NCBI GenBank assembly: GCA_038851075.1
Contig: JAWCLG010000011.1
Coordinates: 1 to 33,669, forward strand
DNA: 33,669 bases
From: Candidatus Hadarchaeales archaeon
GTDB lineage: Archaea; Hadarchaeota; Hadarchaeia; Hadarchaeales; Hadarchaeaceae
Direction: 5' to 3'
Under the pieces are notes generated by a model. That model worked only from the letters and a program-made list of their open reading frames with translations, did not search any database and was not told where the DNA came from. Of this stretch, positions 6 through 15,922 are shown piece by piece (the first letter of the stretch is position 1; every line of letters starts with the position of its first letter). The position numbers and the translations under genes were made by a program.

Positions 6-3000
6 GTGACCCTGCTCAACGCACTGAAGTCTCCATTCTACACCAGCAGCTGGGTGCAGGGTGAGAATTTCAAGTATCCTGGAGAGCTTGTCGACGAGGA
101 GTACTACTGGAGGGTGAAAGCGAAGGACGACGCGGGAAACGTTGGAGAAGACTGCGGGGACACGTGGTTCAGGGTGGACACCAAGCCACCGGTTGCTCCT
201 TCCCTCAGCTGGCCAACCTACGGCGAAAACGTGAACGACAGCACGCCTAACCTCAGGTGGACGTACGATTACGCGGGGGGCGAGGTCGGAGGCGGAAACG
301 AGAAGTCGAAGCCCGCCTCATACAGAGTCTGGATCGCACACGATGTCGACTTCACAGAACTAGTTTTGGACTCGGGTTGGATGGCAGATCCAAACCTCGA
401 GGACGTGAATGAGAACTGGGAGGTGCCCGTTGAGAACCTCCTCCCGGACAACGTCAACCACTACTACTGGAAGGTGGGAATCAAGGACGCGGCCGGAAAC
501 GTCGGGGAGAACTCCGAGGTGTGGATATTCTGGATCGATACAGTCAAACCGCCTAAGCCGGATCCCGTCTCTCCGGAAAACAACTGGTGGGTGTCATCGA
601 CCGAGAACCTCCAGTGGACATCTGTTGAGGACAACTCGAAACCCGTCGTTTACAGGGTATGGGTCGCTCGCGATGAGGAGTTCACGATGGTGGACAGGGA
701 CTCCGGATGGAGAACCGAGAACTGGTGGAAGATCTCCCCGCCGCTTGTGGACAACTGGTACTGGTGGAGAGTGCAGGCAATGGATAACGCTGGAAACCTG
801 AGCGAAAATGCAGACGCCAGAAGATTCCTGGTGGACACGCAGGCTCCCGGAAAGACCCAGCTTCTGGCACCAGTTGAGGGGGAGAACATGAAGGACAACA
901 AACCAACCCTGCGCTGGGTGGACAACATAGAGGACCCAGCCCAGCCGGTGCTCTACTACGTGTGGGTGGCGAAAGATCAGGGGTTCACGCAGATTTACTG
1001 GGAAACAGGGGCATGGATCGAGGAGAACGAAGTGGAGGTTGGAACAGAACTTCCCGACAACGTCTACTACTGGAAGGTCGGGATAATGGACAACCTCGGA
1101 AACATCGGTGAGAACTCCGACTATTCCTGGTTCAGAATCGACGTGACCAAGCCGCCAAAGCCAGACCTGTACAGGCCTGCGAATAACACTTCAACCGAAA
1201 ATCTATCAGTTGAGCTGGAGTGGTCTCATCTCACAGACGAATCGGGCATAACTTATCATCTCCAAGTTGGAGCCGGATCAAACTTCGAAATGCTGGTGGA
1301 TAACGACAAGCTGAAGGAGAACATTTACCAGTTCACGGCCCCGCGGACAGGACTGTATGTCTGGAGGGTCTGCGCATACGACAACGCGGGGAACATCGGA
1401 GAATGGTCGGACAACTACGTGTTCACAGTTGGCATGTGGCATCTTGCAGAGAACTGGAGCGGGACGATGGGGGTGCTGGTTTCATGGCTGCAGGCGGAGG
1501 GATGGTCCGGGGATGTGAACGCGCCCGTGGGATGGGTGAGCACGGATACATGGGCGGGATCAGTTGTAGTGCCTGTTTCATGGTTCACAGCCGAATTCTG
1601 GAGCGGAGCGATGGGGGCACCGGTTGCTTGGAGCGAGACGGAGTCCTGGAATGGATCAGTTAACGCTCCCGTCAGCTGGCTGAATGTTGAGTCCTGGAAT
1701 GGATCAGTTAACGCTCCCGTTTCATGGCTGCAGGCCGAGGTATGGTCCGGTGCTTTGAACGCGCCTGTTGGGTGGATGAACGCCGAAACCTGGTCCGGGA
1801 GCTTGGGAACGTTCACCCCGGGCTGGTGCCTCGTGCAGAGCTGGTCAGGGGCCGTTCTAGTTCCGGTTGCTTGGGTGCAGACGATGACATGGAGCGGGAC
1901 GGTGAGTGCTCCGTCCCAATGGTCAGTTGCCGAGTCATGGAACGGGTACGTCGGAGTGGTAGTTTCATGGAACGTCGGAGAAACTTGGGCAGGCGCGATA
2001 GGGGCTCCGGTGGCTTGGGTGAACACGGAAACTTGGGCCGGAAAGGTATACGCGCCCGGTCCCGCACCAACCCTGATTTACCCGTCCAACAACTCAGCCG
2101 TACACGATAACGCCCCAACGTTCACATGGGACAACACTTGGGTCGCGGACAACTGGGAGATATGGGTCGACAATGACAGCAACTTCGACACTCCGGTATT
2201 CGTGGAGAACACGGTCAATAACTTCTTCAACTCGCCCCAGCTTGGAGATGAGAACTATTACTGGCGCGTGCGTGGCTGGCTCGGTCCGTCCGCATCTCCC
2301 TTCACAACGTATTCCGTGCTCATAGACACAGTCAGGCCGACCGTGCCGTTGAAGTCTGACATAGCAGAGGACACAGGAAAATCTGACTCTGACATGATAA
2401 CCAATGACGACAACATAAAGTTCATGTGGGGCGCCTCCTCTGATAGTTCAAACTCACCAACCGGAGAAAAGGCAGGAATCAGATGGTACGAGATAATTGT
2501 TGACGATGATTTGTTGCCTCCGTACGAAATTGCAGAAAATGTGGCGGGGCAGGAGATTTACATAGAGGTTCCGGAGGGCACGTGGAAGTGGATAGTCAGG
2601 GCCTGGGACTGGGCCGGCAACGTGAGCGAAAACGAGGCTCCATGGACGCTGATCGTCGACTTCACGCCTCCCGCTCCTCCCTCACTAATAACGCCGGCCA
2701 ACAACTCCGCAACGAAACAGACATCGGCCCTCCTGTTCCAGTGGGAGAACATGGCGAACTCCGACAACATCTGGAAGTACTGGGTTCAGATAGACAACGA
2801 CCAGAGCTTTCCTGGGAACCATCCGAACAAAACGAATACATATCCCACCGTCAACTACATCACAAAGTACTTCATCTATGACCCCAAGGATGAGAACTAC
2901 TGCTGGCGCGTGAAGGCTTACGACATCGCCGGAAACGAAGGCGACTGGTCTCAGGTTTGGTGTGTGATGATAGACACCAGAGCACCGATGTCTCCTGGAA

Positions 3001-4620
3001 AGTATCAACCTGTGGACAATGAAAACATAACATCATCAACCGTCCTATTCGTCTGGGGCGAGACTAATGACCAGTCTTACTCTCCAACTGGTGAGGTGGC
3101 GGGAATCGAGACCTATGAGATATGGATAGATGAAGATCTGAACTTTGGCTCGCCATATCTCGTCGAGAACTTCTCCCCGACTGGAACGGGATCCGTGGAG
3201 TTCGAAATTTCCCTGCCGGACAACGTATACTACTGGCGCGTCAGAGCCTGGGACAGGGCGGGCAACCCCGGAGGCTTCGAAACCGCGTGGAAGTTCACAG
3301 TGGACAACACGCCACCTTCCGCACCGGATCTGGTTTCGCCAGATAACCTGACCATGATGAACGACAACAGACCCACATTCACCTGGACAGAGGTATATGA
3401 TGTGACCGGAGTGACATACGAGATATGGATCGATAACGTTCCGACCTTTGACGATAACCCGTTCGTGGACAACACGGAAAACACGTTCTATGCTCTTAGC
3501 CTCGAGAACGCGCTCACGGACGAGAACTACTACTGGAAGGTCAGGGCGTGGGATGGAAAGAACTGGAGCGAGATCAGAAAGCCCGGACCGTTTTCTGGAA
3601 TAAATTCCCTGCTGCTGGACACGAGAGGACCGCCGGCTCCGAGTTCCTCTCCTGTGGTACAGATAGAGGGCAAGTGGTATGCCGGAGACGGGCTTATAAC
3701 CGGAGACAACCAGCCGTCCGTCCACTGGAACATGGTCACAGACCTCTCGTACTCTCCGACAGGAGAGGTCTCAGGGGTGAGGTATTACGAGCTGGAGATA
3801 GATAACGACAACGGCTTCACGTCGGTCGAATATCGTTGCTTCACATCCGACAACGTCTTCAACTACCTGGACGATAACTACCCGGTCGGAGCCGGGTTCC
3901 CGGATGAAAACTACTCCTTCAGGATCAGGGTCTGGGACTGGGCAGGGAACCACGGGGACTGGAGCCCCATCTGGAGTTTCATAGTTGACACGACACCTCC
4001 CACGGTTCCTGAACTCAAGGCACCGGATAACAATGCCGCGGAAAACGTGGGCATGGCATCCCTTGAATGGTACGATTCCTATGACGCAACGGGCGTGGAC
4101 CACTATTACATAGAGGTGGATGATGATCCTAGCTTCCTGACGCCGCTCGATCCCGGGTTCTTCTCTGATGATCCCACGAACCTAAAGACCACAGCAGTGG
4201 TGGTGACATTTCCTGAGGATGGCAGATACTACTGGCACGTTAAAGCGATCGACAAAGCTGGGAAGGAGAGTGCCTGGTCAGAAACCTGGGAGGTTGTGAT
4301 TGACTGTGTGAAGCCGCCGGTACCCGATCCTCTCACGCCGGTGGACAACTATCTCACTTCGGATAATACTCCGACTTTCCACTGGACCAGCGTTGAGGAC
4401 AACACAGAGACAACTCCACATGTGAGCGGTGTGGAAAACTACGTCCTTCAGATAGATGACAGCCCGGCGTTCACCTCTCCTGCCAGCTTCGTCACGCAGG
4501 AGAATATGCTCACCATCCCGGCCGACAATTCCCTCGCGGTCGGCGCATGGTACTGGAGGGTGTGCGCTGTCGACAGGGCCGGGAACCAGGGCGACTGGTC
4601 GGAGAACTTCAGGATAAACA
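6..4620 (+). repeat. About 13 FN3/Ig-like protein modules (~100 aa) in the giant protein, interrupted by the Trp-repeat block
   Basis: Recurring YYWRV.A.D.AGN....W.F.VDT.PP..P.L..P signature; counted by eye as 5 copies before 1437 and 8 after 2063. Confidence 0.85.
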
Positions 4621-7600
4621 TCACGGATTTGGTCCTGACTCTCGCGCTATCTGACAACATCGTCAACCCAGGGGAGAACTTCGCGATCTCCGGAAGGGCG
4701 AGCTGGCAACCCGAGAACCTGCCCGTTGACAACAGACCGGTGTATGTGTACGTTGATGACAATCTCATCGATACGTTGTACACCGACAACTACGGATGCT
4801 ACTCCACCTCTTACCTGACGAACGCCCTCGGTACGCATCAGGTCAAGGTGGCGATAACTGACAACCACGGAGTATATGAGGAAAACGTGGTGACCTTCAG
4901 CGTCGAGACGCTCACTGTGACAATAATGCTGGACGATTACGTGGCCAACCCCGGAGAGAGCATCGCGATATCCGGCCAGGTCCTTCGCTGGCTGGACTGG
5001 GAAAATGCTGTTCCAGAGAACAGGAGCGCGACTGACATTGTGATATACGTTGATGAGAACTATCAGACCACGCTTCACCCTGATGAAAATGGAAACTACA
5101 GCGGAGAGATCACGGCTCCTGAAAACCTGGGAGCGCACACAGTGTATGTGGACATCGAGAATCCGGACGGCATCACGGGAGATAACCAGACCAACTTCCA
5201 GGTCAAAACCGTGCACCTCACGTTCTCATTCGAACGCAGCATGGCCAACCCTGCCGAGAGGCTGAGGTACTCAGGTGTGGCTACCCTACTGCCGGACGGG
5301 ACCAAGGTGAGCGGCAAGACGGTCGAGGTCTGGCTGGGGGACACCCTCAAGAGCACCGCCCAGACCAACCCAGACGGGAGCTACTCGGGCGAGGTCATAG
5401 TACCCGAGGAACTCGACACGTACCAGTACACGGCAAAACTCTGGGCAGACGACTGGATAAAGGGAGAGAACACCGCGCTGGTCACCGTGAAGAGAATAGA
5501 TCTAGTAGCGTTTTACGATGACAACACGGTGAACCCCGGGGAGCCGAACCAGATTTACGGAACCGCTTTCCTCCTGCCAGACAACGAGCCGGTGGTAGGA
5601 CAGCAGCTCACGTTCACGCTTGAGGATGATCAGGGCAGGATCGTTGGAGGGGCAACGGGATACACCGGCCCGACCGGAGCGTACGCCATCAGCTTCACCA
5701 CGCCCAACGTCTATGGAGTCTACAGAGGAATGGTCAGCATCACCTATCAGGTGTTTTCGGCGGTTACGGTGAGGTATCTCTACGTGAAGGCGGGCGTTAT
5801 CCCGCTGTACTTCGACGACAACGTTGTGAACCTGACGCAGGACTTCTGGATTTCCGGAACAGCCAGAGTGCTGCCAGACAACGCTCCGGTCGCAAACGCA
5901 GAGGTGAAGATATACAGGGACGGAATACTGTACGACAACACGGTCACGAACGAAAACGGACAGTACTCGTATAAGTACACCGAGGACTCGATCACTCCCG
6001 AAAAACGCACAATAAAGGTAGTTGCGGTAAGCCCGGAGGGAATAGTGTGCGAAAACACGCAGTACTTCGAAAAGCGCGTCCTTCAGTACGAGCAGCTCGT
6101 GTCATACGACTCCCACGATCAGTTCGACAGCGTGCTGAATCCGGGAGAGAACTTCTACCCGAGCGTCCTGATCGAAGAGAATAACGGGACACAGGCTTTC
6201 AAAGTTCAGAAATCTCTGGACACCGACCTGTTGAGGGCCAAGGTCGGAGCAAACGTCTACGTGATGTCGCACATAAGGGAAGGTCGCTGGAAGGTGCCCA
6301 GCCTCCAAACCGCACCGAGCTCTCCCGGACAGTACTATATCATGATCGACGTCATGGGTTCCAGCGAGAACGGGATAACCACGCCCGCTTACGGCCTGCA
6401 GATGTTCTACTATGTCAAGACTCTCTCACTGGAGCTGCGCGCCACCGACTACACGGTGAACCCAGGCCAGCAGAATGTGGTTGCATACGGCACGGTCAGG
6501 CTTGTTCCGGATGGGACTCCGGTCGCTGGAGAAAACGTGGCGATATCGTTTGCCGGTGAAAACTATCTGTTAACCACGGCCGATAACGGATACTACTCAT
6601 GCGTTCTGAACATCCCAATGACCTCCAGAGTTGAGAACCTGAGGGCGAGCATAGTGGACTCCAGAGGGCTTGAGATGGAGAACACGGTGACGATAACGGT
6701 AGGGTCAATAGATATATCGTTAATCCCGGAGACTGAGATAGCAGGAGAGGGGCAGCCGTTCAGAATGTATGGAACTGCGTTGCGCAGGCCAGAAAATACT
6801 CCTGTTCAAAACACTGAGGTGAAGTTCTACATTGACAACTCATACATCAAGAGCGTGTATACCGGCACAAATGGTGCGTATGAAATCATACACACCTTCA
6901 CGACGCGCGGAATATACGAGATCAGAGTGGAGATTGTCGACGCTGATGGTATAGTCGGGGAGAACTACAGGAGTGTAATCGCTGGCAGGCCGCTGCGCAT
7001 CTGGGACAACGTTGGCATAAAGGACGTTTCTGGCACGCCTATACAGGCTACGATGAAGTTCTACGAGCAGGGCACCTCGAATGTCGCTTTTCAGATCACC
7101 ACATCCTCGGACGGTACCTATGACGTCTGGGGATTCGCAGGATACTTCGATCTGGAGATAAGCTTCCCAAGCCAGGCCGTGACCCTGAAATATGAGAACT
7201 TAAACCTTGACGGGTTCAGCGCCTGGGATGAGATAAGCAGATTCATAGAGGCCGACACACCGCCTTCGGCGTATGTTTCAGTTCCGGGAACCAGGGGCAC
7301 TCTCAGGGGAATCGCGATCCGTCCACATCAGGTGTTCACAGAGAACTACAGCAGGCTGGTCGTCACATTCACGTACAGCAGCTACATCCAGCAGGTGGGA
7401 GACATATGGTTCCTAAGAGTGTACAGGACCAAGGGATACCAGCTTGAGAACCGTATGGTGGAGGGAGGCTGGAAGGAACTGGGAGGGACTCTGGATGTTG
7501 CCAACTACAAGATCACCGCGATAGACAACGAGGACCCGCCCGCGGTGGCGTACGTCGTGGCGGAGTACGACCCGCTCTCCGCGGTTCTCCTCACTTTTGA

Positions 7601-10600
7601 AAATGCGGTTTCCACAATTCAGGAAACCGCCGGGCTTCTTGGAGAGATGTCGCAGAGCCTCATGGATAACGCCCTCCTGCTCGCCAGCGTTGTGGATAAT
7701 CTGAAGCAGACCGTGGGCAATCTCGCGACACAGGAGAACATCGCGGCACTGGCGGATATACAGGGGCAGATAGCAAACATCCTGGACAACGTCTCCGGCA
7801 TCCTCAACCAGATTGTGAATCTCGAAAACTCTTCACTGGGGCTTACAGAGAACCTCTGGAGCGCGTTCATCCAGCTGTCACAGCTTCTCGAGAACGCGTC
7901 CAGAAGCTCTCAGGTCGACGAGATAAGGGAGCAGCTCTCCCAGGCATTTGCGGTGCTTCAGGGCCTGGCTCCCAGAGAGTCTCTGAGCATAGACCCATCC
8001 ATAGCCTGGCTTGAAATCTACCAGGGTGAGACCACGGAGTTCTTCGTCAGAATAACAAACACGTCCACATCGGACCTGTCGGTTCATCCTGAGAAGGGCG
8101 TCAGAAACTGGCCTGAGTCTCTTGAGCTCGACAGATCTATCAGGATGTCTTTCGATCCCTCTGTCCTGAGCCTGAAGTCAGCGGAAACCCGCACGCTGAC
8201 GGTAACGGTAGTGGCCGGAACGAACGTGCCGGCGGGCGTATACTCCGGAGAGGTGCTGATCAAGGGCACAGGCGTGGAGAAGGCGCTCCCCGTTGCCATG
8301 AGAGTGCGTCCGTGGGCTAGGGGACTCTTTGACCTCAGCGTGACCTCGCTTGTCAGGACCAGCTATCCTGGAGGAAAGGTCCCGGTGGAGGTACAGCTGA
8401 AGAACATGGGTATCCAGGCCGCTGACGCCGAGGTAACTGTCACCCTGGAGAGCGTATCAGGTGCTAGGCTGGCCACCGTGATGGGCGAGACGGTCAAGGT
8501 GGATGTGAGCGAGACCAAGGTTCAGACATACGAGATCGAGGTGCCGGTTGATATAGAGGAGGGGCAGTACGTTATCAAAGCCGTTGCGGTTTATCACTGG
8601 AACGGAGATAATGTGACGATTTCAGGAGTGGACACGGTGGAGATTGAAAAGTTCATAAAAGTCACGCTTAGAACGCTGGCGCGCGAGGTTGAGCCCGGCG
8701 GAAAGATTCCTTTTGAGGCGGAGTTCAGAAATACCGGGTCGGAGTGGACCGAGGTCAACGTTAAGCTGCAGCTCCTGACACCGGCTGGAGAGCCCTGCTG
8801 GTCGGAATCTGTCAGAATATCTCTCGAGCCAAACTCTGTTGAGAGAAGAACGTATGAGGCGGATGTACCATCAGACACCGCTGGAGGAACGTTCGTGCTC
8901 ACGGCATCCGGCGAATACGTGTGGCTGGAAAAGGCGATTTCAATCACCGAGGCAGAGGCAGAGGTTCAGGTGAAAAGCCCGCCGTTCACCTTCTTCGGCA
9001 TCTCAATACCCTGGTTGATAATCTCGGCCGTGGCAATAGTGGCCGCGGGTATCGCTGGAAGGTTTGGATACAGGTACTACCAGAAGAGAAAAGCTGCAAG
9101 GCGCAGGTTTGAGGCGAGACTGTTTACCGCCGAGCTTCCGAAACCCGGGCCGGACGCCATTAAGATAGGAAAGCTCGCGGAGGCACCTGGAGACGCTCAC
9201 CTTGACATAAATGACCTGAGAATGCATGTCATGACGGCAGGCGCCACCGGAGGCGGAAAAACTATCTCGTCGATGGTAATTGCCGAGGAGGCGCTGCTGA
9301 AGGGCAGGAACGTGATTGTCTTCGACCCGACCGCACAGTGGACCGGGTTCCTGAAGAAGTGTACCTCCGAGAAGATGCTGTCATATTACAAGAACTTTGG
9401 GATGAAGGATAGCGATGCCAGGGGATTCCCTGGTGTGGTCAAGCTTGTAACAAACCCGAGGCAGAAGCTGGACATGAAGGAGCTGCTCGGTGAGGAGGCA
9501 AGAGGAAAGATCACCGTGTTCGTGATAGAGCGTCTGAAGCCGGGAGATATGGACGTGTTCGTAACCAACGTAATACAGTCCATATTCGAGTCACAGCCGA
9601 TGGAGTATCCGGGGCTGAAGACCCTGCTCATATTCGACGAGGTACACAGGCTTCTCCCGAGGTTCGGAGGGACCGGTGCCGGAGTCATACAGCTCGAGCG
9701 CGCCGTCCGTGAGTTCAGAAAGTGGGGAATAGGAGTGATGCTCGTGTCCCAGGTCATGGGAGACTTTGAGGAGGAGATAAGATCAAACATAAGGACTCAG
9801 GTTCAGTTCTGGACCAGGGAGAAGGAGGAACTTGACAGGATATCAAGGACATACGGAGAGGAGCACATGCGTTCGGTCTCCAAGGCCCCGGTTGGATTCG
9901 GCATGCTAGTCAATCCGGATTACAACAGAGGCAGGCCTTACTACATCAACTTCAGGCCGATTCTGCACGAGGTTCAGAGGCTGGATCCAAAGCAGCTCGA
10001 CAGGTACTACGCGGCCGATGAGAGGATAGAGAACATCAAGTACAAGCTGAAGAAGCTGGAGGAGAAAGGAGTTGATGTCTTCGATCTGCGCATTGAACTC
10101 GGGCTGGCAATGCGCAAGCTTGAGGAGGCTTCGTTCGACATGGTTGACGCTTATCTCGAGTCGCTCGAGCCGAGGGTGGAGAGCGTGTGCGCCCAGCACA
10201 AGATGGCCGGATTGAAGCGGGAGATTGAGCTGAGGTCGGAGAAGGAGATAAAGGAGACGCAGATGGCGGCGCTCAGAGAGCGTGAGCGCAGGCTCGGAGC
10301 GGTTGCCAGACGCCCGCCGGAGATTGTGGAAGCCTACAAGGAACTGCTCGCGCGCGCAACTCCGGTGGCAACAGGAGAGACAGGGAAGCCGCTCAAGGAG
10401 GAAGAGGTGGTGCATCCGATGGCGGAGAAGGGACCGCCAAAGAGCGAGGAGGAGATAGAGAAACAGATGGAGGAGATTGAAAAGCCGAAAGAGGCGGCTG
10501 AGAAGAAGGTCGTGGAGGAGAAAGAGGAGCAGGTCAAAAAGGCAAAAGAGGAGAAGAAACCGGCCGCAAAGGCCAAGGCGAAAAACGGCGCTGCGAAAAA

Positions 10601-10625
10601 GTCCAACGGTAAAGGCAGAAGGTAG
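6..10625 (+). CDS. Giant cell-surface protein (5' truncated): FN3/Ig-like repeats, Trp repeats, Ig-like repeats, coiled coil, CARDB-like domains, single TM helix, C-terminal HerA/FtsK/VirB4-like (DUF87-type) ATPase
   Basis: The frame is open from the window edge and begins mid-repeat with no signal peptide, so the true start is upstream. TM helix FFGISIPWLIISAVAIVAAGIAG (~8990-9060) is followed by basic YYQKRKAARRR. Walker A GATGGGKT 9240-9263, VIVFDP, Walker B LLIFDEVH 9624-9647 and REFRKWGIGVMLVSQ are the characteristic HerA/FtsK-superfamily motifs. Lys/Glu-rich tail. Confidence 0.9.
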   Translation: MTLLNALKSPFYTSSWVQGENFKYPGELVDEEYYWRVKAKDDAGNVGEDCGDTWFRVDTKPPVAPSLSWPTYGENVNDSTPNLRWTYDYAGGEVGGGNEKSKPASYRVWIAHDVDFTELVLDSGWMADPNLEDVNENWEVPVENLLPDNVNHYYWKVGIKDAAGNVGENSEVWIFWIDTVKPPKPDPVSPENNWWVSSTENLQWTSVEDNSKPVVYRVWVARDEEFTMVDRDSGWRTENWWKISPPLVDNWYWWRVQAMDNAGNLSENADARRFLVDTQAPGKTQLLAPVEGENMKDNKPTLRWVDNIEDPAQPVLYYVWVAKDQGFTQIYWETGAWIEENEVEVGTELPDNVYYWKVGIMDNLGNIGENSDYSWFRIDVTKPPKPDLYRPANNTSTENLSVELEWSHLTDESGITYHLQVGAGSNFEMLVDNDKLKENIYQFTAPRTGLYVWRVCAYDNAGNIGEWSDNYVFTVGMWHLAENWSGTMGVLVSWLQAEGWSGDVNAPVGWVSTDTWAGSVVVPVSWFTAEFWSGAMGAPVAWSETESWNGSVNAPVSWLNVESWNGSVNAPVSWLQAEVWSGALNAPVGWMNAETWSGSLGTFTPGWCLVQSWSGAVLVPVAWVQTMTWSGTVSAPSQWSVAESWNGYVGVVVSWNVGETWAGAIGAPVAWVNTETWAGKVYAPGPAPTLIYPSNNSAVHDNAPTFTWDNTWVADNWEIWVDNDSNFDTPVFVENTVNNFFNSPQLGDENYYWRVRGWLGPSASPFTTYSVLIDTVRPTVPLKSDIAEDTGKSDSDMITNDDNIKFMWGASSDSSNSPTGEKAGIRWYEIIVDDDLLPPYEIAENVAGQEIYIEVPEGTWKWIVRAWDWAGNVSENEAPWTLIVDFTPPAPPSLITPANNSATKQTSALLFQWENMANSDNIWKYWVQIDNDQSFPGNHPNKTNTYPTVNYITKYFIYDPKDENYCWRVKAYDIAGNEGDWSQVWCVMIDTRAPMSPGKYQPVDNENITSSTVLFVWGETNDQSYSPTGEVAGIETYEIWIDEDLNFGSPYLVENFSPTGTGSVEFEISLPDNVYYWRVRAWDRAGNPGGFETAWKFTVDNTPPSAPDLVSPDNLTMMNDNRPTFTWTEVYDVTGVTYEIWIDNVPTFDDNPFVDNTENTFYALSLENALTDENYYWKVRAWDGKNWSEIRKPGPFSGINSLLLDTRGPPAPSSSPVVQIEGKWYAGDGLITGDNQPSVHWNMVTDLSYSPTGEVSGVRYYELEIDNDNGFTSVEYRCFTSDNVFNYLDDNYPVGAGFPDENYSFRIRVWDWAGNHGDWSPIWSFIVDTTPPTVPELKAPDNNAAENVGMASLEWYDSYDATGVDHYYIEVDDDPSFLTPLDPGFFSDDPTNLKTTAVVVTFPEDGRYYWHVKAIDKAGKESAWSETWEVVIDCVKPPVPDPLTPVDNYLTSDNTPTFHWTSVEDNTETTPHVSGVENYVLQIDDSPAFTSPASFVTQENMLTIPADNSLAVGAWYWRVCAVDRAGNQGDWSENFRINITDLVLTLALSDNIVNPGENFAISGRASWQPENLPVDNRPVYVYVDDNLIDTLYTDNYGCYSTSYLTNALGTHQVKVAITDNHGVYEENVVTFSVETLTVTIMLDDYVANPGESIAISGQVLRWLDWENAVPENRSATDIVIYVDENYQTTLHPDENGNYSGEITAPENLGAHTVYVDIENPDGITGDNQTNFQVKTVHLTFSFERSMANPAERLRYSGVATLLPDGTKVSGKTVEVWLGDTLKSTAQTNPDGSYSGEVIVPEELDTYQYTAKLWADDWIKGENTALVTVKRIDLVAFYDDNTVNPGEPNQIYGTAFLLPDNEPVVGQQLTFTLEDDQGRIVGGATGYTGPTGAYAISFTTPNVYGVYRGMVSITYQVFSAVTVRYLYVKAGVIPLYFDDNVVNLTQDFWISGTARVLPDNAPVANAEVKIYRDGILYDNTVTNENGQYSYKYTEDSITPEKRTIKVVAVSPEGIVCENTQYFEKRVLQYEQLVSYDSHDQFDSVLNPGENFYPSVLIEENNGTQAFKVQKSLDTDLLRAKVGANVYVMSHIREGRWKVPSLQTAPSSPGQYYIMIDVMGSSENGITTPAYGLQMFYYVKTLSLELRATDYTVNPGQQNVVAYGTVRLVPDGTPVAGENVAISFAGENYLLTTADNGYYSCVLNIPMTSRVENLRASIVDSRGLEMENTVTITVGSIDISLIPETEIAGEGQPFRMYGTALRRPENTPVQNTEVKFYIDNSYIKSVYTGTNGAYEIIHTFTTRGIYEIRVEIVDADGIVGENYRSVIAGRPLRIWDNVGIKDVSGTPIQATMKFYEQGTSNVAFQITTSSDGTYDVWGFAGYFDLEISFPSQAVTLKYENLNLDGFSAWDEISRFIEADTPPSAYVSVPGTRGTLRGIAIRPHQVFTENYSRLVVTFTYSSYIQQVGDIWFLRVYRTKGYQLENRMVEGGWKELGGTLDVANYKITAIDNEDPPAVAYVVAEYDPLSAVLLTFENAVSTIQETAGLLGEMSQSLMDNALLLASVVDNLKQTVGNLATQENIAALADIQGQIANILDNVSGILNQIVNLENSSLGLTENLWSAFIQLSQLLENASRSSQVDEIREQLSQAFAVLQGLAPRESLSIDPSIAWLEIYQGETTEFFVRITNTSTSDLSVHPEKGVRNWPESLELDRSIRMSFDPSVLSLKSAETRTLTVTVVAGTNVPAGVYSGEVLIKGTGVEKALPVAMRVRPWARGLFDLSVTSLVRTSYPGGKVPVEVQLKNMGIQAADAEVTVTLESVSGARLATVMGETVKVDVSETKVQTYEIEVPVDIEEGQYVIKAVAVYHWNGDNVTISGVDTVEIEKFIKVTLRTLAREVEPGGKIPFEAEFRNTGSEWTEVNVKLQLLTPAGEPCWSESVRISLEPNSVERRTYEADVPSDTAGGTFVLTASGEYVWLEKAISITEAEAEVQVKSPPFTFFGISIPWLIISAVAIVAAGIAGRFGYRYYQKRKAARRRFEARLFTAELPKPGPDAIKIGKLAEAPGDAHLDINDLRMHVMTAGATGGGKTISSMVIAEEALLKGRNVIVFDPTAQWTGFLKKCTSEKMLSYYKNFGMKDSDARGFPGVVKLVTNPRQKLDMKELLGEEARGKITVFVIERLKPGDMDVFVTNVIQSIFESQPMEYPGLKTLLIFDEVHRLLPRFGGTGAGVIQLERAVREFRKWGIGVMLVSQVMGDFEEEIRSNIRTQVQFWTREKEELDRISRTYGEEHMRSVSKAPVGFGMLVNPDYNRGRPYYINFRPILHEVQRLDPKQLDRYYAADERIENIKYKLKKLEEKGVDVFDLRIELGLAMRKLEEASFDMVDAYLESLEPRVESVCAQHKMAGLKREIELRSEKEIKETQMAALRERERRLGAVARRPPEIVEAYKELLARATPVATGETGKPLKEEEVVHPMAEKGPPKSEEEIEKQMEEIEKPKEAAEKKVVEEKEEQVKKAKEEKKPAAKAKAKNGAAKKSNGKGRR
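1437..2063 (+). repeat. 13 tandem 16-aa Trp-rich repeats (consensus WxxxExWSGxVxAPVx; 48-nt period)
   Basis: Units such as WLQAEGWSGDVNAPVG, WSETESWNGSVNAPVS and WLNVESWNGSVNAPVS (one unit has 17 aa). Exact 32-nt direct repeat GAGTCCTGGAATGGATCAGTTAACGCTCCCGT at 1641-1672 and 1689-1720. Confidence 0.95.
4621..6985 (+). repeat. About 8 second-class Ig-like modules (macroglobulin/carboxypeptidase-regulatory-like) in the giant protein
   Basis: Repeated D..VNPGE...I.G....LPD..PV and T..NG.YS motifs, e.g. LSDNIVNPGENFAISG, LDDYVANPGESIAISG, YDDNTVNPGEPNQIYG, ATDYTVNPGQQNVVAYG. Confidence 0.75.
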
Positions 10626-10694: not shown

Positions 10695-11486
10695 ATGAGG
10701 GCGGCGGTTAAAGTGCTGGCGATATCTGCGGTGGCCGCACTGGTCTTCACCGGGGTCTATCTATCGCTTAAGGTGACTTTTGAGCTGGCAGGGTTGGATT
10801 TCGTGGCAGATGGCGACTGTTTTATCCGGGTCAGTTACCACACGAACCGCCCCGCGGTTGCTAGGCTTTTGTCATATGATAACAGGGTGCTGGAGGAGGT
10901 GGAGCTGCCTTCTGGATCAGACCATGCCGAAATTAAAATAACAGAGAACCGCAGCAATCCCAAAGAGCCGGTTTTTCTGATAATAGAACAGGGTGGCAGA
11001 GTTATCTGGACCGGTGGTTTCTCGATGCCGGTTGTCCAGCTAAAGCTCATTGGCATAGTGGAGTGGGGCTGGGATCCTGATGCCGGCCTGAGCACCATCA
11101 AGTGCTTGGCTGTCCAGATAAGCAACGGAGGAGGGCTACCAGCGCATGTGTACAGGATAAGCGGTCTGCTGGACGGAAGACTCGTTGGAGGGACTTCAAC
11201 CGAGTGGGAGCCTGCTGGAGAGGGAATTGTGGACAGATGGATAATGCCTGGTGCCGAGGACAATCTGACCGTGGAGTGGAGTGGACCGTCGCTTTCACCA
11301 GGATACCACGGATTCAAGCTCGTCGCCGAGGACATTGACGGTGAAGAAGTCGCAGGTATGGTGTTCCCAGCCTTCGTCAACGTTCCAAGCGAGTACATTC
11401 ACGGCGGGAGGATGGTCGATGAGTGGAGCGGGGAAGTCGGGGCACCGGCTGGATGGTACAGATCGGAGAACTGGAGATTGAGGTAA
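10695..11486 (+). CDS. Membrane-anchored or exported beta-rich protein with a C-terminal Trp-repeat motif
   Basis: N-terminal hydrophobic segment VLAISAVAALVFTGVYLSL; beta-strand-rich body; ends GRMVDEWSGEVGAPAG-WYRSENW, in register with the 16-aa repeat of the giant protein. Confidence 0.8.
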   Translation: MRAAVKVLAISAVAALVFTGVYLSLKVTFELAGLDFVADGDCFIRVSYHTNRPAVARLLSYDNRVLEEVELPSGSDHAEIKITENRSNPKEPVFLIIEQGGRVIWTGGFSMPVVQLKLIGIVEWGWDPDAGLSTIKCLAVQISNGGGLPAHVYRISGLLDGRLVGGTSTEWEPAGEGIVDRWIMPGAEDNLTVEWSGPSLSPGYHGFKLVAEDIDGEEVAGMVFPAFVNVPSEYIHGGRMVDEWSGEVGAPAGWYRSENWRLR

Positions 11487-13331: not shown

Positions 13332-13445
13332 TCACCATAATCTATGGGCACTGGCATTTTATCTTTACCGCTGGTTGGCAAATCTCTCGGGCTTGGTTAT
13401 CCTCCAGCGGAGGGGCTTAATACCACAGAAACAGGATTTGAATTG

Positions 13446-13931
13446 ATGGAGCGAAACGAAATAGCGATAGTTCTGCTCCTAGCCATGCTGGCCTGCGCGT
13501 GGGCTGTCTGGCTATGGGGCGGTTCGTTTGGCGCCGGCACCTCAAATGATAATCTGGAAGGCCTGTTGGACAGAACATCCCTTTTCAGGGGTTATCGGGC
13601 ATATATGGATAACTCGCTGGGCCTCTGTTTCACCACAGGGTCGAGCATGGAGCCGGCCCTCAGGACCGGAGATACGGCTATATGGGTCAAAGTTCCATTT
13701 GAAAATCTTCAAGTTGGAGATGTCATCGTTTACTCACATACCGTCACAGTAGGAGAGAACAGGGGTCAGATCTTCATAGTCGTTCACAGGATCATTAACA
13801 CAGTGGAGGACGGAGTTTTCACGAAGGGAGACAATCTCTCCAGCCCTGATGCTTACAAAGTGAGACCGGGAGATTTTATAGGTCTTGTTAGGGGCGTCCT
13901 GTTCACATCCTCCGGATCGTGGGAGAGGTGA
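13446..13931 (+). CDS. S26 signal peptidase I, ER/archaeal (Sec11/SipW) type, predicted active
   Basis: N-terminal TM; box B TGSSMEPALRTGD (Ser nucleophile), VGDVIVY, IVVHRII (His base), TKGDN...PD. Start moved from 13344 to ATG 13446, with TTAATA ~24 nt upstream. Confidence 0.85.
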   Translation: MERNEIAIVLLLAMLACAWAVWLWGGSFGAGTSNDNLEGLLDRTSLFRGYRAYMDNSLGLCFTTGSSMEPALRTGDTAIWVKVPFENLQVGDVIVYSHTVTVGENRGQIFIVVHRIINTVEDGVFTKGDNLSSPDAYKVRPGDFIGLVRGVLFTSSGSWER

Positions 13932-13935
13932 GAGC

Positions 13936-14370
13936 ATGAGGAGAGCAACTGTTAAAAAGATTGAGAGCGGGATTGTCCTAGTTTTACTTTTCGCAACGAC
14001 TTTCAGCTGGATATTTGCTGTTTCGAGGCTGTTTTCCGAGCAGAAGCTGAATGACGTGTCGGAATATTTTGACAACTTCAGGGTTCTGCTCAGTGATGAG
14101 ATCAATATAACATCCGCTGGAAACTGGGACATGGGGCAGACCATCAGGGAGGGCGATATGGTCATGTGGGTACGGCCTGATCAGGGAAAGGTTGGAACCG
14201 GTGACCTGGTGCTGTGCAGGGATGAAGATAATTCAGTTATCGCACGCAGGGTAATTTCAACCGATAACGGATGCTTTCAAGTCAGGGGAGACTCGCTGGG
14301 AAGTGAGACTTATTCAGTTTCTTTTACAGACATCGTCGGACAGATTATCGGAGTGATTTACGAGAGGTGA
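13936..14370 (+). CDS. S26 signal-peptidase-like paralogue lacking catalytic residues
   Basis: Co-linear with the upstream peptidase (TIREGDMVMW, TGDLVL, RRVI, VRGDS, DIVGQIIGV) but SSMEP is WDMGQ and VHRI is ARRV; GAGGTGA RBS overlaps the upstream stop. Confidence 0.75.
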   Translation: MRRATVKKIESGIVLVLLFATTFSWIFAVSRLFSEQKLNDVSEYFDNFRVLLSDEINITSAGNWDMGQTIREGDMVMWVRPDQGKVGTGDLVLCRDEDNSVIARRVISTDNGCFQVRGDSLGSETYSVSFTDIVGQIIGVIYER

Positions 14371-14374
14371 GGTT

Positions 14375-15040
14375 ATGTCAGCTCCCGCTGAGGAAGTAAA
14401 GATTGGTAAAAAGGACCTGATTAAACTTTTCGTGAAGAAGCGTTGGAAGCACCTGATCCTCGCTGGTGCGTGTATCGCGGTCCTGTCCTTCGTGTTCTGG
14501 CTTGTATTCAAGCCGCCTGAGCCACAGCCAGCCTGGGTGTCAGGGCCGATTTTCAACCAGCCGGGAGAAAACGGCCTTCTCGCCGCGGTTGGTGAGAACA
14601 CCGGGATCGAGAATATATACCTCGCGGCATGGGGAAAATATGGGCCCGCGTACAATCCGAGGGAAGACCTAGCCGCACAGGCAGGTGCGGTTGACGGGGT
14701 GATAAGCTCCAGCGGGCAGTGCGTGCAGATATGGGCGAACAGGCGGTTCGACATAGTCATTGCGGTCAGGGCGAAGACTCCGGAAATAGCCTACGTGGCG
14801 AGGGAAAACATGTGGGTGACGCTTGCCGCGACGGTAAACGGGTTCACCATAGGTCCCGAAAATTCAACCGACCGTAAGGAATACGTGTTCGAGCAGTCGG
14901 GTTACGGGACTACCGAGGGATACATGCGCGTGAACGTTGTGTGGGACAACGACGGGAACGGTTACGAGCTCATGCCGCAGGATAACCTGAAGATAATGTT
15001 GCTGGGCTTCTACACCTGGAGATATCCTGGAAGACTTTAA
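14375..15040 (+). CDS. Exported or membrane-anchored protein, paralogue of the 15110-15922 product
   Basis: GAGGTGAGG RBS; KKRWKH followed by hydrophobic helix LILAGACIAVLSFVFWLVF; shares six ordered motifs with the convergent gene. Confidence 0.8.
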   Translation: MSAPAEEVKIGKKDLIKLFVKKRWKHLILAGACIAVLSFVFWLVFKPPEPQPAWVSGPIFNQPGENGLLAAVGENTGIENIYLAAWGKYGPAYNPREDLAAQAGAVDGVISSSGQCVQIWANRRFDIVIAVRAKTPEIAYVARENMWVTLAATVNGFTIGPENSTDRKEYVFEQSGYGTTEGYMRVNVVWDNDGNGYELMPQDNLKIMLLGFYTWRYPGRL

Positions 15041-15073
15041 GTTGCACCTCAGTGTACCCAGCCCCAGCTGATC

Positions 15074-15097
15074 AAATAAAAAAATAAAAAAAAGAAA
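15074..15097 (-). terminator. Oligo-T archaeal terminator for the 15110-15922 gene
   Basis: Minus strand TTTCTTTTTTTTATTTTTTTATTT starting 12 nt after the TAG. Confidence 0.7.
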
Positions 15098-15109
15098 TGC
15101 GCTGCTGGA

Positions 15110-15922
15110 CTAGCTCCAGATATACAGCGCAATTGTGTCCAAGCTAAGGGTTCCGCCGGCCGGTAGTTTGAAGCCAGCCCCTCCATTGTTGAACACGCAG
15201 TTGACCCTTGCATATCCACTAGCATACGCTCCGTTCTGTGTCCACGGCACGTTGTTGTCAAAGACGAACTCATAGCCAGTGTTCTGCGTGTTTTCAGTCC
15301 CTGAGTGTGCCCCGCTGAAGCTGAGATACCCATACATATTGTCCATGTTCACGTATGCCACGAGCTTCGCATCCTGCTTGTTTCCGGTGTAGCCTGCGTC
15401 GGCCTTAACCTTGCAAGCCATGACTATGGTGAACGGATACTCGTACGGAATCGTTGCTGTGTCAGAGTTTGCGGTTATTATAGCGTCAGAGGCTCCATCC
15501 AGCAACCAGTTGTCATTGTTTTCCCCGGATATGTGCCTGCCGAAATTGGTTGAGTTTGGTGCAAGATTGTCGCAGATGAGCACGTTCTCTATCCCACTGT
15601 TTTCAGGTACGCCTGCGGTAAAGCCAAGCAGAAACTGTCCATCGGCGGTCAGCAGCTGCCCCGAGATCAGCGAAACGGTCCCCTGTCCAGAAACCGTTGA
15701 TGGTGTGGACAGTGCCCATCCAGCTAGCCCTGCCACTATCACTATTGCAACAGCTGCGGTAACCCATTTCCACTGTGCCATTCTTTTTTCCACCTCCATT
15801 TTTTTTATTGGTGCCCTCGCCAGAGGTCCGGGCATAAAATCAAGTCTCCCCTTGCAACGCGGGCATTCCTTCGGGTGTTGCACCCTCGGGTTCCACTCAT
15901 ATCCACAGCGGGGGCACCTCAT
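15110..15922 (-). CDS. Exported protein with N-terminal C4 Zn ribbon, TM/signal helix and Gly/Asn/Ala-rich beta domain (candidate filament or surface subunit)
   Basis: CPRCGYEW.PR...PKECPRCK, then WVTAAVAIVIVAGLAGWAL; alternative start at Met48 (15781) with GGAGGTG RBS. Confidence 0.8.
   Translation of the reverse strand: MRCPRCGYEWNPRVQHPKECPRCKGRLDFMPGPLARAPIKKMEVEKRMAQWKWVTAAVAIVIVAGLAGWALSTPSTVSGQGTVSLISGQLLTADGQFLLGFTAGVPENSGIENVLICDNLAPNSTNFGRHISGENNDNWLLDGASDAIITANSDTATIPYEYPFTIVMACKVKADAGYTGNKQDAKLVAYVNMDNMYGYLSFSGAHSGTENTQNTGYEFVFDNNVPWTQNGAYASGYARVNCVFNNGGAGFKLPAGGTLSLDTIALYIWS

Follow-up and report, generated by a model that had tools for sequence, protein, structure and literature searches.

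Archaeal AglB and eukaryotic STT3 are oligosaccharyltransferases (OSTs) which carry a WWDYG motif and act on Asn residues followed by Ser/Thr at position +2 (N-X-S/T). The STT3 paralogues of Trypanosoma brucei still require N-X-S/T and keep the WWD residues. DPY19, a C-mannosyltransferase of the glycosyltransferase C (GT-C) type with an STT3-like fold, modifies the Trp in WxxW and forms a precedent for this fold gaining a new acceptor motif. In one structural account, the Trp indole and Asp carboxylate of WWD are described to hydrogen-bond the hydroxyl of the +2 Ser/Thr, and Campylobacter PglB, which recognizes D/E-X-N-X-S/T, is described to bind the acid of its sequon through R331 (PMC7226087). 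In the T. brucei paralogues the choice of acceptor depends on flanking residues, according to two reports (PMC2722254, PMC5724017). A passage of a 2024 review describes AglB variation at the fourth position of WWDXG only (PMC11407970). The stretch analyzed here (the window) comprises 33,669 nucleotides of a Candidatus Hadarchaeales archaeon, from an order which is thermophilic and uncultivated (contig JAWCLG010000011.1, positions 1 to 33,669), and is contig C11 of genome G000, an assembly of 29 contigs and 1.009 Mb which is 88% complete. It begins with the gene of a giant surface protein (6..10625), in the extracellular part of which Asn is most often preceded by Asp or Glu. This dipeptide, written [DE]N, and the single AglB homologue of the genome are the subjects of the analysis.

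The Hadarchaeales enzyme belongs to the same family as archaeal AglB and eukaryotic STT3, with the same fold and membrane side. The respective motif is concentrated in the same kinds of target, namely surface proteins, proteins encoded at archaellin loci and the external domain of the enzyme itself, and Pro after the Asn is likewise disfavoured. It differs in possessing [E/Q/P]WS[F/Y/H]G in place of WWDYG, and the sites show an acid at -1 and no preference at +2, where Ser/Thr is found in the known systems. As in PglB, the acid is N-terminal of the Asn. However, PglB has it at -2, needs the +2 Ser/Thr and keeps WWD, while in Hadarchaeales it is at -1 ([DE]xN is not enriched) and no counterpart of R331 was found in AglB. 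DPY19 uses a Dol-P-Man donor and acts on Trp, and the Hadarchaeales enzyme is much closer to OSTs (E 4e-17 vs 4.5e-9). No description of a [DE]N sequon or of a WWD-less AglB was found in the literature searched, which covered few subscription journals.

Dipeptide bias in the giant surface protein

The giant open reading frame (ORF) is on the forward strand, encodes 3539 amino acids (aa) and is left open by the 5' end of the contig. A single hydrophobic transmembrane (TM) segment was observed at aa 2994-3018 (8985..9059), therefore about 3000 residues should lie outside the cell and about 520 inside. The extracellular part (aa 1-2993, 6..8984) is composed of FN3/immunoglobulin (Ig)-like, Big_13/Rha78A-like and CarboxypepD/Big_1-like repeats, among which Pfam recognized Ig_Rha78A_N, Big_13 and, more weakly, Big_1. 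The cytoplasmic part (9060..10625) possesses a HerA/DUF87-type ATPase at aa 3052-3270 (nucleotides 9159-9815) followed by a Lys/Glu-rich tail. The ATPase is represented by a DUF87 match at aa 3052-3146 (30.1 bits, cut-off 23.2) and a HerA_C match at aa 3155-3270 (31.9 bits, cut-off 22). This part served as internal negative control.

The initial annotation had counted by hand 25 [DE]N among the 41 Asn of aa 1-476 and one among 12 in the cytoplasmic part. Both counts were exact on recounting; the 25 sites (DN 11, EN 14) compare with 6.7 expected, and after the TM segment 1/12 Asn is in [DE]N. In the whole external part, [DE]N was found at 115 of 208 Asn where 28.5 were expected (odds ratio, OR, 4.0), and 2000 shuffles of this part gave a mean of 28.6 with standard deviation (sd) 4.8 and a maximum of 46. 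EN (60 vs 14.5 expected, z 11.9) and DN (55 vs 14.0, z 11.0) are the top two of all dipeptides, and the third reaches z 4.7. The reverse pair N[DE] is depleted (17 vs 28.5 expected) and N-X-S/T is near expectation (30 vs 31.7). As had been noted, most sites lie outside N-X-S/T, with an overlap of 14 among the 115. The bias was found in the FN3-like (25/41), Ig/Big_13 (43/72), CarboxypepD/Big_1-like (33/54) and coiled-coil-like (7/11) regions. A repeat artefact is ruled out for this protein by the presence of the bias in four different region types.

The architecture of the protein is itself unusual, with more than 3000 residues of external Ig/FN3-like repeats, one TM segment, a cytoplasmic HerA/DUF87-type ATPase and a Lys/Glu-rich tail. 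Within it, about ten tandem 21-residue Trp-Ser-Gly (WSG) repeats (...NAPVSWLxAExWSGxV...) occupy aa 477-700 (1434-2105). Two other large ORFs of G000 show one late hydrophobic segment, C18:10979-15532, which starts with the same WSG-type repeat, and C25:2-4435.

Genome-wide distribution of the bias in G000

The initial annotation had proposed a genome-wide comparison of dipeptide odds ratios between secreted and cytoplasmic proteins. For this, 1025 ORFs of G000 were called by a simple script and classed by hydrophobic segments, a crude and noisy procedure, and the expectation for [DE]N was computed for each protein from its own composition. The OR was 1.06 in ORFs without hydrophobic segment (n=707), 2.15 in ORFs with an N-terminal segment only (n=101), 2.39 in those with 1-2 TM segments (n=119) and 2.51 in multi-TM ORFs (n=98). 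Nearly all top-scoring proteins possess a signal or TM segment. In 87 proteins with an N-terminal anchor, the giant protein excluded, the mature parts contain 353 [DE]N vs 170.1 expected, and the 612 cytoplasmic ORFs contain 767 vs 730.0. By external/cytoplasmic ratio, DN and EN rank first and second among all dipeptides. [DE]N was above expectation in 45/55 external and 134/297 cytoplasmic proteins. Control pairs in exported proteins showed no enrichment (OR 0.80 for N[DE], 0.96 for [DE]xN, 0.76 for [DE]Q and 0.70 for [DE]D), and neither did N-X-S/T (OR 1.01).

To remove repeat families, 198 signal/TM proteins were grouped in 142 BLAST clusters. Singleton clusters alone contain 288 [DE]N vs 159.9 expected (500 shuffles: mean 159.6, sd 11.3, maximum 192), and 47 clusters are above expectation while 24 are at or below it. 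The nucleotide pattern GANAAY is raised in the coding frame only, with 3.71 per kb in genes of the signal/TM class vs 1.31 in others, which shows the bias to be a protein-level signal. Noise from the home-made gene calls, signal/TM classes and topology should dilute the contrast rather than create it. The bias was thus confirmed as real, genome-wide and far wider than first noted. It survives correction for composition and repeats and occurs in unrelated secreted proteins, and so the two grounds on which the initial annotation would have given it up do not apply.

Topology and sequence context of the sites

The families rich in [DE]N are unrelated to each other. They include GLUG, two MMPL proteins, a PQQ-like propeller, an EMC3/YidC-like protein, transglutaminase, an ABC permease with DUF2341, an M50 protease, fn3, PKD and a carbohydrate-binding module (CBM) with Pilin_N. 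In families with known topology, the sites were found in external loops. The MMPL protein at C3:56808 has [DE]N at 6/11 and 5/6 Asn of its two large external loops and 0/2 in the K/R-rich loops. The corresponding counts for external and other loops are 5/6 and 0/2 in the EMC3/YidC-like protein, 8/8 and 0/1 in a DUF5518 protein, and 11/24 (external domain) and 0/2 in the ABC permease. In AglB, the C-terminal domain shows 7/19 and other loops none, except 1/3 Asn in the first loop.

A second window protein showed the same partition. The gene at 15110..15922 on the reverse strand encodes 270 aa with a cytoplasmic zinc ribbon, one TM segment and an external Ig-like sandwich, and all its eight [DE]N sites (8/21 Asn, 1.7 expected) are C-terminal of the TM segment. 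Among 17 members of its family, [DE]N was found at 0/16 Asn of the cytoplasmic part and 157/313 of the external part (34.4 expected), where N-X-S/T counted 41 vs 46.2 expected. Around 18 members of this family are known from metagenomes and Hadarchaeales metagenome-assembled genomes only, and the family corresponds to no Pfam entry and gave no specific match to a known structure. The zinc ribbon is a CPxC...CPxC arrangement ahead of the TM segment.

Sequence context was analyzed in 192 external segments from G000 and six relatives, comprising 1221 [DE]N sites and 2673 other Asn. The residue at -1 is Glu in 771 sites and Asp in 450. At +1 of the [DE]N sites, Pro is depleted to 0.38-fold (1.43-fold at other Asn) and Lys to 0.36-fold, and Leu, Tyr, Met and Phe are each raised to about 1.4-fold. 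Ser/Thr at +2 was observed in 164 of the 1221 sites (13.4%) against a background of 14.4%.

The STT3/AglB homologue of G000

G000 possesses a single STT3-family gene, AglB (C1:17246-19750, 834 aa). It matches Pfam PF02516 with 44.7 bits (cut-off 24.5) across profile positions 62-216 of 405 only, and NCBIfam TIGR04154 (archaeo_STT3) with 48.9 bits, far under the cut-off of 450. A profile of 19 orthologues found STT3B in the PDB at E 6.9e-17. The segment VVAVEWSFGHLVGGATHRMTVCDG aligned to human STT3B and likewise to yeast STT3, with EWSFGH opposite WWDYGY, and the 19-sequence profile gave the same alignment. Inspection of this motif had been suggested in the initial annotation and proved the key lead. 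The WWDYG (WWDXG) motif is absent and EWSFG stands in its place.

D41, D154, E301, R366, R369, W469, S470, G472 and H473 are invariant in the 19 orthologues. The metal-binding D-x-D/E motif of external loop 2 is represented by GAFDRE, which aligns to GSFDNE/GSYDNE of STT3; within it, R155 is conserved in at least 90% of the 19 orthologues and D154 in all. D41 (TTSDSG) and E301 (YA[G/S]E[A/M]QAP) are at the places where the catalytic Asp of external loop 1 and the Glu of the TIXE/SVSE motif in loop 5 would be expected, although HMMER alignments to solved OSTs do not cover or fix these columns. The DK or MI motif, which contacts the +2 residue in OSTs, was not located. The AlphaFold2 (AF2) model (mean predicted local distance difference test, pLDDT, 84.0; predicted template modelling score, pTM, 0.80; low pLDDT at aa 487-534) shows a multi-TM GT-C fold with an external C-terminal globular domain. 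In Foldseek, ranks 1-19 from the PDB are all STT3, AglB or PglB (E 3.9e-17 to 1.5e-13). From the invariant residues and the predicted OST fold, AglB of G000 therefore looks like an active OST with a rebuilt peptide-reading motif.

At its C-terminal end (aa 740-834, C1:19460-19750), AglB has an FN3-like domain whose repeat type is that of the giant surface proteins. Dozens of ORFs of 1000-8000 aa in relatives were matched by this end alone.

Distribution in the order and phylum

An AglB match was found in 40 of the 41 genomes searched, G000 included, which represent five families of the order. All 30 AglB loci retrieved from the order show xWS[FYH]GH. Bias was compared between signal/TM and no-TM proteins in 100-400 kb sampled per genome. 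The respective ORs were 1.56 and 0.89 in G001 (EWSFGH, about 387 kb), 1.95 and 0.86 in G008 (QWSFGH, 300 kb), 2.18 and 1.08 in G010 (QWSYGH, 100 kb), 1.94 and 0.93 in G025 (EWSYGH, 100 kb), 1.56 and 1.09 in G038 (PWSYGH, 300 kb), 3.13 and 1.04 in G031 (EWSYGH, 200 kb), and 2.49 and 0.92 in G028 (EWSYGH, 200 kb). With G011, the bias is common to all eight relatives sampled. The outgroup G041 is the sole genome of the phylum outside the order returned by two phylum searches, one of which was restricted to genomes at least 80% complete. It possesses a canonical AglB (DPYFHFR, SIAEHQP, WWDYGYWI) and showed ORs of 1.04 and 0.85 in 381 kb, with 120 signal/TM proteins in the sample. Reciprocal best hits between G000 and G041 gave 13 TM pairs only (24 vs 10.6 expected against 17 vs 12.6), too few to weigh.

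Archaellins are typical N-glycoproteins. A search of 61 genomes of the order detected their genes in five, G000 not among these. Twelve distinct ORFs at archaellin loci, with an N-terminal hydrophobic helix, contain 57 [DE]N vs 19.5 expected and 18 N-X-S/T vs 19.2.

Reciprocal enrichment in AglB external domains

The external domains of AglB proteins provide a fold-matched control for the bias. An AglB profile search of 1.84 billion representatives returned 57 matches at E up to 1e-30, followed by a gap. Among the best 150 matches, 37 possess xWSxG, 89 possess WWDxG, all of them beyond the gap, and 24 are fragments or other variants, such as EWAIGH, EWSYGS, HWELGY, DWEIGY, PWPVGY, DWYLGY and PFGIGH. 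External domains of the 37 xWSxG proteins contain 390 [DE]N vs 120.1 expected (OR 3.25; 36/37 above expectation) with an OR of 1.18 for N-X-S/T. In the 89 WWDxG proteins the pattern is reversed, with OR 1.12 for [DE]N and 454 N-X-S/T vs 294.1 (OR 1.54), and NxT alone counts 295 vs 142.9 (OR 2.06). After removal of five conserved columns from the xWSxG domains, 283 [DE]N sites are left where at most 120 are expected. In seven more distant WWD-less proteins, the totals are 33 for [DE]N (8.4 expected) and 7 for N-X-S/T (6.8 expected).

A metagenome scan with the alignment A2 gave 11 loci; the single protein P0152 as query gave no match. At one of them, L185, a deeper-branching STT3 of PFGIGH type has the same Rad50 gene directly upstream as aglB of G000. 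An adjoining exported protein of 1374 aa contains 39 [DE]N vs 10.5 expected, and ten cytoplasmic neighbours together contain 9 vs 10.9. Locus L184, with a relative of the HWELGY-type P0152 (56% identical), was set aside because its STT3 gene is fragmented and the protein classes there are not reliable. The Rad50-like gene just upstream of the divergent aglB is a case of conserved synteny between G000 (C1:13967-19750) and L185:7615-12535.

Distant STT3-like proteins P0042, P0043, P0049, P0050, P0053, P0057, P0152 and P0160 are from metagenomes only, and in this set WWD is replaced in HWELGY, DWEIGY, PWPVGY, DWYLGY, PFGIGH and HWEMGY. Members of two different clusters of the set each have a longest contig of 250,561 bp and may be paralogues in one genome.

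Interpretation of the bias

The evidence tips towards [DE]N being a replacement N-glycosylation sequon of the extracytoplasmic proteins of Hadarchaeales, read by a remodelled AglB. A modification sequon with an acid at -1 had been one of two explanations offered in the initial annotation. It is favoured, not proven, by a bias which is extracytoplasmic, fold-independent and order-wide, co-occurs with loss of WWD and replaces N-X-S/T enrichment. In the proposed mechanism, proteins would be exported across the cytoplasmic membrane, and AglB, as a multi-TM GT-C enzyme with an external C-terminal domain, would transfer a lipid-linked glycan to the Asn amide. Since WWD is replaced by [E/Q/P]-W-S, reading of +2 would have been lost and recognition would have moved to the acid directly before Asn, with Pro and Lys disfavoured directly after it. 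Selection for dense surface modification would then have enriched [DE]N, as it does N-X-S/T in other archaeal surface proteins. Along with the +2 reader of the enzyme, the proteome would have lost its N-X-S/T enrichment and gained [DE]N on the surfaces which an external OST can reach. A change of sequon is the simplest account of the bias, the AglB motif and the reciprocal enrichment. A broader proposal is plausible, falling just short of probable. It states that Hadarchaeales and their deeper metagenomic relatives abandoned N-X-S/T and N-glycosylate at [DE]N through an AglB with the WWD pocket rebuilt to [E/Q]-W-S, which would be the first natural OST to read the residue before Asn and ignore +2.

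If true, this would mean that acceptor recognition by an oligosaccharyltransferase can be re-invented and that glycosite prediction by N-X-S/T is wrong for this phylum. It would also make available to glyco-engineering a thermostable enzyme whose tag is two residues long, and would provide a natural experiment on a proteome tracking a changed modification code. Even without glycosylation, a compartment-specific dipeptide code this strong, comprising about half of surface Asn in some proteins, is unexplained biology.

Several points weigh against a glycosylation sequon. Modification of the Asn, AglB as its agent, reading of the acid by the enzyme and the identity of the glycan are what we infer from the pattern, and we know of no OST that reads position -1. 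A basic residue which could bind the acid at -1 was sought in AglB and none was identified, the candidate partners being the invariant H473, R481, R535 and R536, or the catalytic metal. No glycosylation genes were found beside aglB, the neighbours being Mre11/Rad50-like, HisRS and inositol-lipid genes. PF00953 (AglH/Alg7 family) was not found in G000, an 88% complete assembly, and its GT2 genes are only two (C2:31569-32015 and C18:464-820). Should N-glycosylation operate, its glycan pathway would be a minimal or unconventional one. The link between AglB motif and bias is based on one evolutionary origin, and the relatives are not independent. In addition, G011 (family f1, genus g11; 20 contigs, 94% complete) keeps the bias (OR 1.46), and no AglB was found in it by protein, Pfam family or 19-sequence profile. 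Six other genomes of genus g11 have AglB. G011 is uninformative as a test of AglB loss, since the gene could have been lost recently or fall within the missing 6%.

The sites themselves are not uniform. In the giant protein, the WSG repeats are without bias (1/14), as their Asn come after Val. The 313 membrane-proximal residues (aa 2681-2993, 8046-8984) are also without it (1/9), for which limited access or a different domain type could be responsible. EN is mildly enriched in cytoplasmic proteins too (1.27). Pro at +1 is depleted and not excluded (24/1221 sites). In a positive-inside model of proteins with at least two TM segments, the outside OR was 2.4-2.8 and the inside OR 1.65-1.78, not 1.0. 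TM detection was too crude for this model, and it was therefore replaced by the loops of families with known topology. Conservation of Asn among orthologues was no higher in [DE]N than elsewhere (0.33 vs 0.36; 0.53 vs 0.62), hence this comparison is not discriminating. In the family of the 15110..15922 product, three invariant [DE]N are located within beta-strands or at their ends, and may have a structural role.

The last of these points leads to the alternative that survives best, a physico-chemical adaptation unrelated to AglB, by which [DE]N would be a Ca2+/Mg2+-binding or turn pair, or would stabilize or solubilize surface proteins at high temperature. The hydrophobic flank pattern of the sites (-4, -2, +1, +3) suggests strand-turn junctions, and in the AF2 model of the 15110..15922 product 6/8 sites are in or beside strands. 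D and E are interchangeable at -1 of the three invariant sites of its family, and contexts such as HDNAPTF and NDNRPTF resemble cadherin-like DxNDNxP linkers. The bias of G011, with no detectable AglB, also fits. However, a structural pair should track folds and not compartments, and the sites are found in loops of transporters and in proteins whose folds are unrelated. Neither the sister genome G041 nor the 89 canonical AglB external domains, which share the fold, show the bias, [DE]N sites turn over like other Asn, and the vanishing of N-X-S/T enrichment exactly where [DE]N appears is left unexplained. We regard this adaptation as unlikely. For most of these reasons, the Ca2+-binding turn, which had been the other suggestion of the initial annotation, is disfavoured; in place of a fold-specific Ca2+ motif of the cadherin-like DxNDN type, sites not tied to one family and conserved as other Asn were found. 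Protection from deamidation is not expected either, as this reaction depends little on the residue which precedes the Asn.

Another extracytoplasmic reader is more doubtful still. It could be a different modifying enzyme, maybe acting on the acid, a signal for processing by, or protection from, an Asn-specific protease, or a docking motif for a surface-layer component, with the STT3 homologue doing something else. Restriction to a compartment and a lineage fits any reader specific to exported proteins. The STT3-like fold can switch its acceptor, DPY19 is the next-best structural match of AglB after OSTs (E 4.5e-9), and the score of the variant AglB is far below the NCBIfam cut-off for archaeal STT3. 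Nevertheless no candidate enzyme was identified, and AglB retains invariant acidic and basic residues where OST catalysis expects them and is changed precisely in its peptide-reading motif. The bias is also Asn-specific, as [DE]Q and [DE]D show. It is very improbable that the bias is an artefact, whether of composition, repeats, gene calls or a nucleotide-level motif. Although gene calls and topology classes came from a crude script and repeats contribute in the giant protein (512 sites fall in one cluster of 39 Ig/FN3 proteins), expectations were computed from the composition of each protein, singleton clusters are about 11 sd above shuffles, the same pipeline found no bias in G041, GANAAY is raised in the coding frame only, and reverse and gapped pairs are not enriched.

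Other genes of the window

All N-terminally anchored genes of the window are enriched in [DE]N and its cytoplasmic genes are not. Downstream of the giant ORF, a secreted or anchored protein of 263 aa with no family match (10695..11486, forward strand) has [DE]N at 4/8 Asn (1.0 expected). An archaeal signal peptidase I with an N-terminal anchor (13344..13931, forward; TIGR02228, 56.9 bits, cut-off 51.85) has 5/9 (0.9 expected). It is followed by an anchored protein of 161 aa (13885..14370, forward; 3/6, 0.8 expected) which resembles signal peptidase I weakly (14.7 bits, below cut-off). The next gene (14375..15040, forward) encodes an anchored or secreted protein of 221 aa, a paralogue of the 15110..15922 product, with 7/13 (1.3 expected). 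The strings which the initial annotation had quoted from these two paralogues are present, in proteins with 7 and 8 sites respectively.

The cluster at 13344-15922 thus represents a signal peptidase I, a degenerate paralogue overlapping its end, and a pair of exported Ig-like paralogues encoded on opposite strands. A TasA-like identity was considered for the two Ig-like products and rejected. Pfam and NCBIfam gave nothing, Foldseek gave no match below E 0.28, and VIA-align in its wide search returned generic Ig-like sandwiches only, with Z at most 5.6. An Rfam scan of the window gave no match. Elsewhere in G000, on the contig which carries aglB, C1:7941-9500 encodes a full-length eukaryote-type topoisomerase IB with Topoisom_I_N, catalytic core and C-terminal domain (E down to 1.8e-64).

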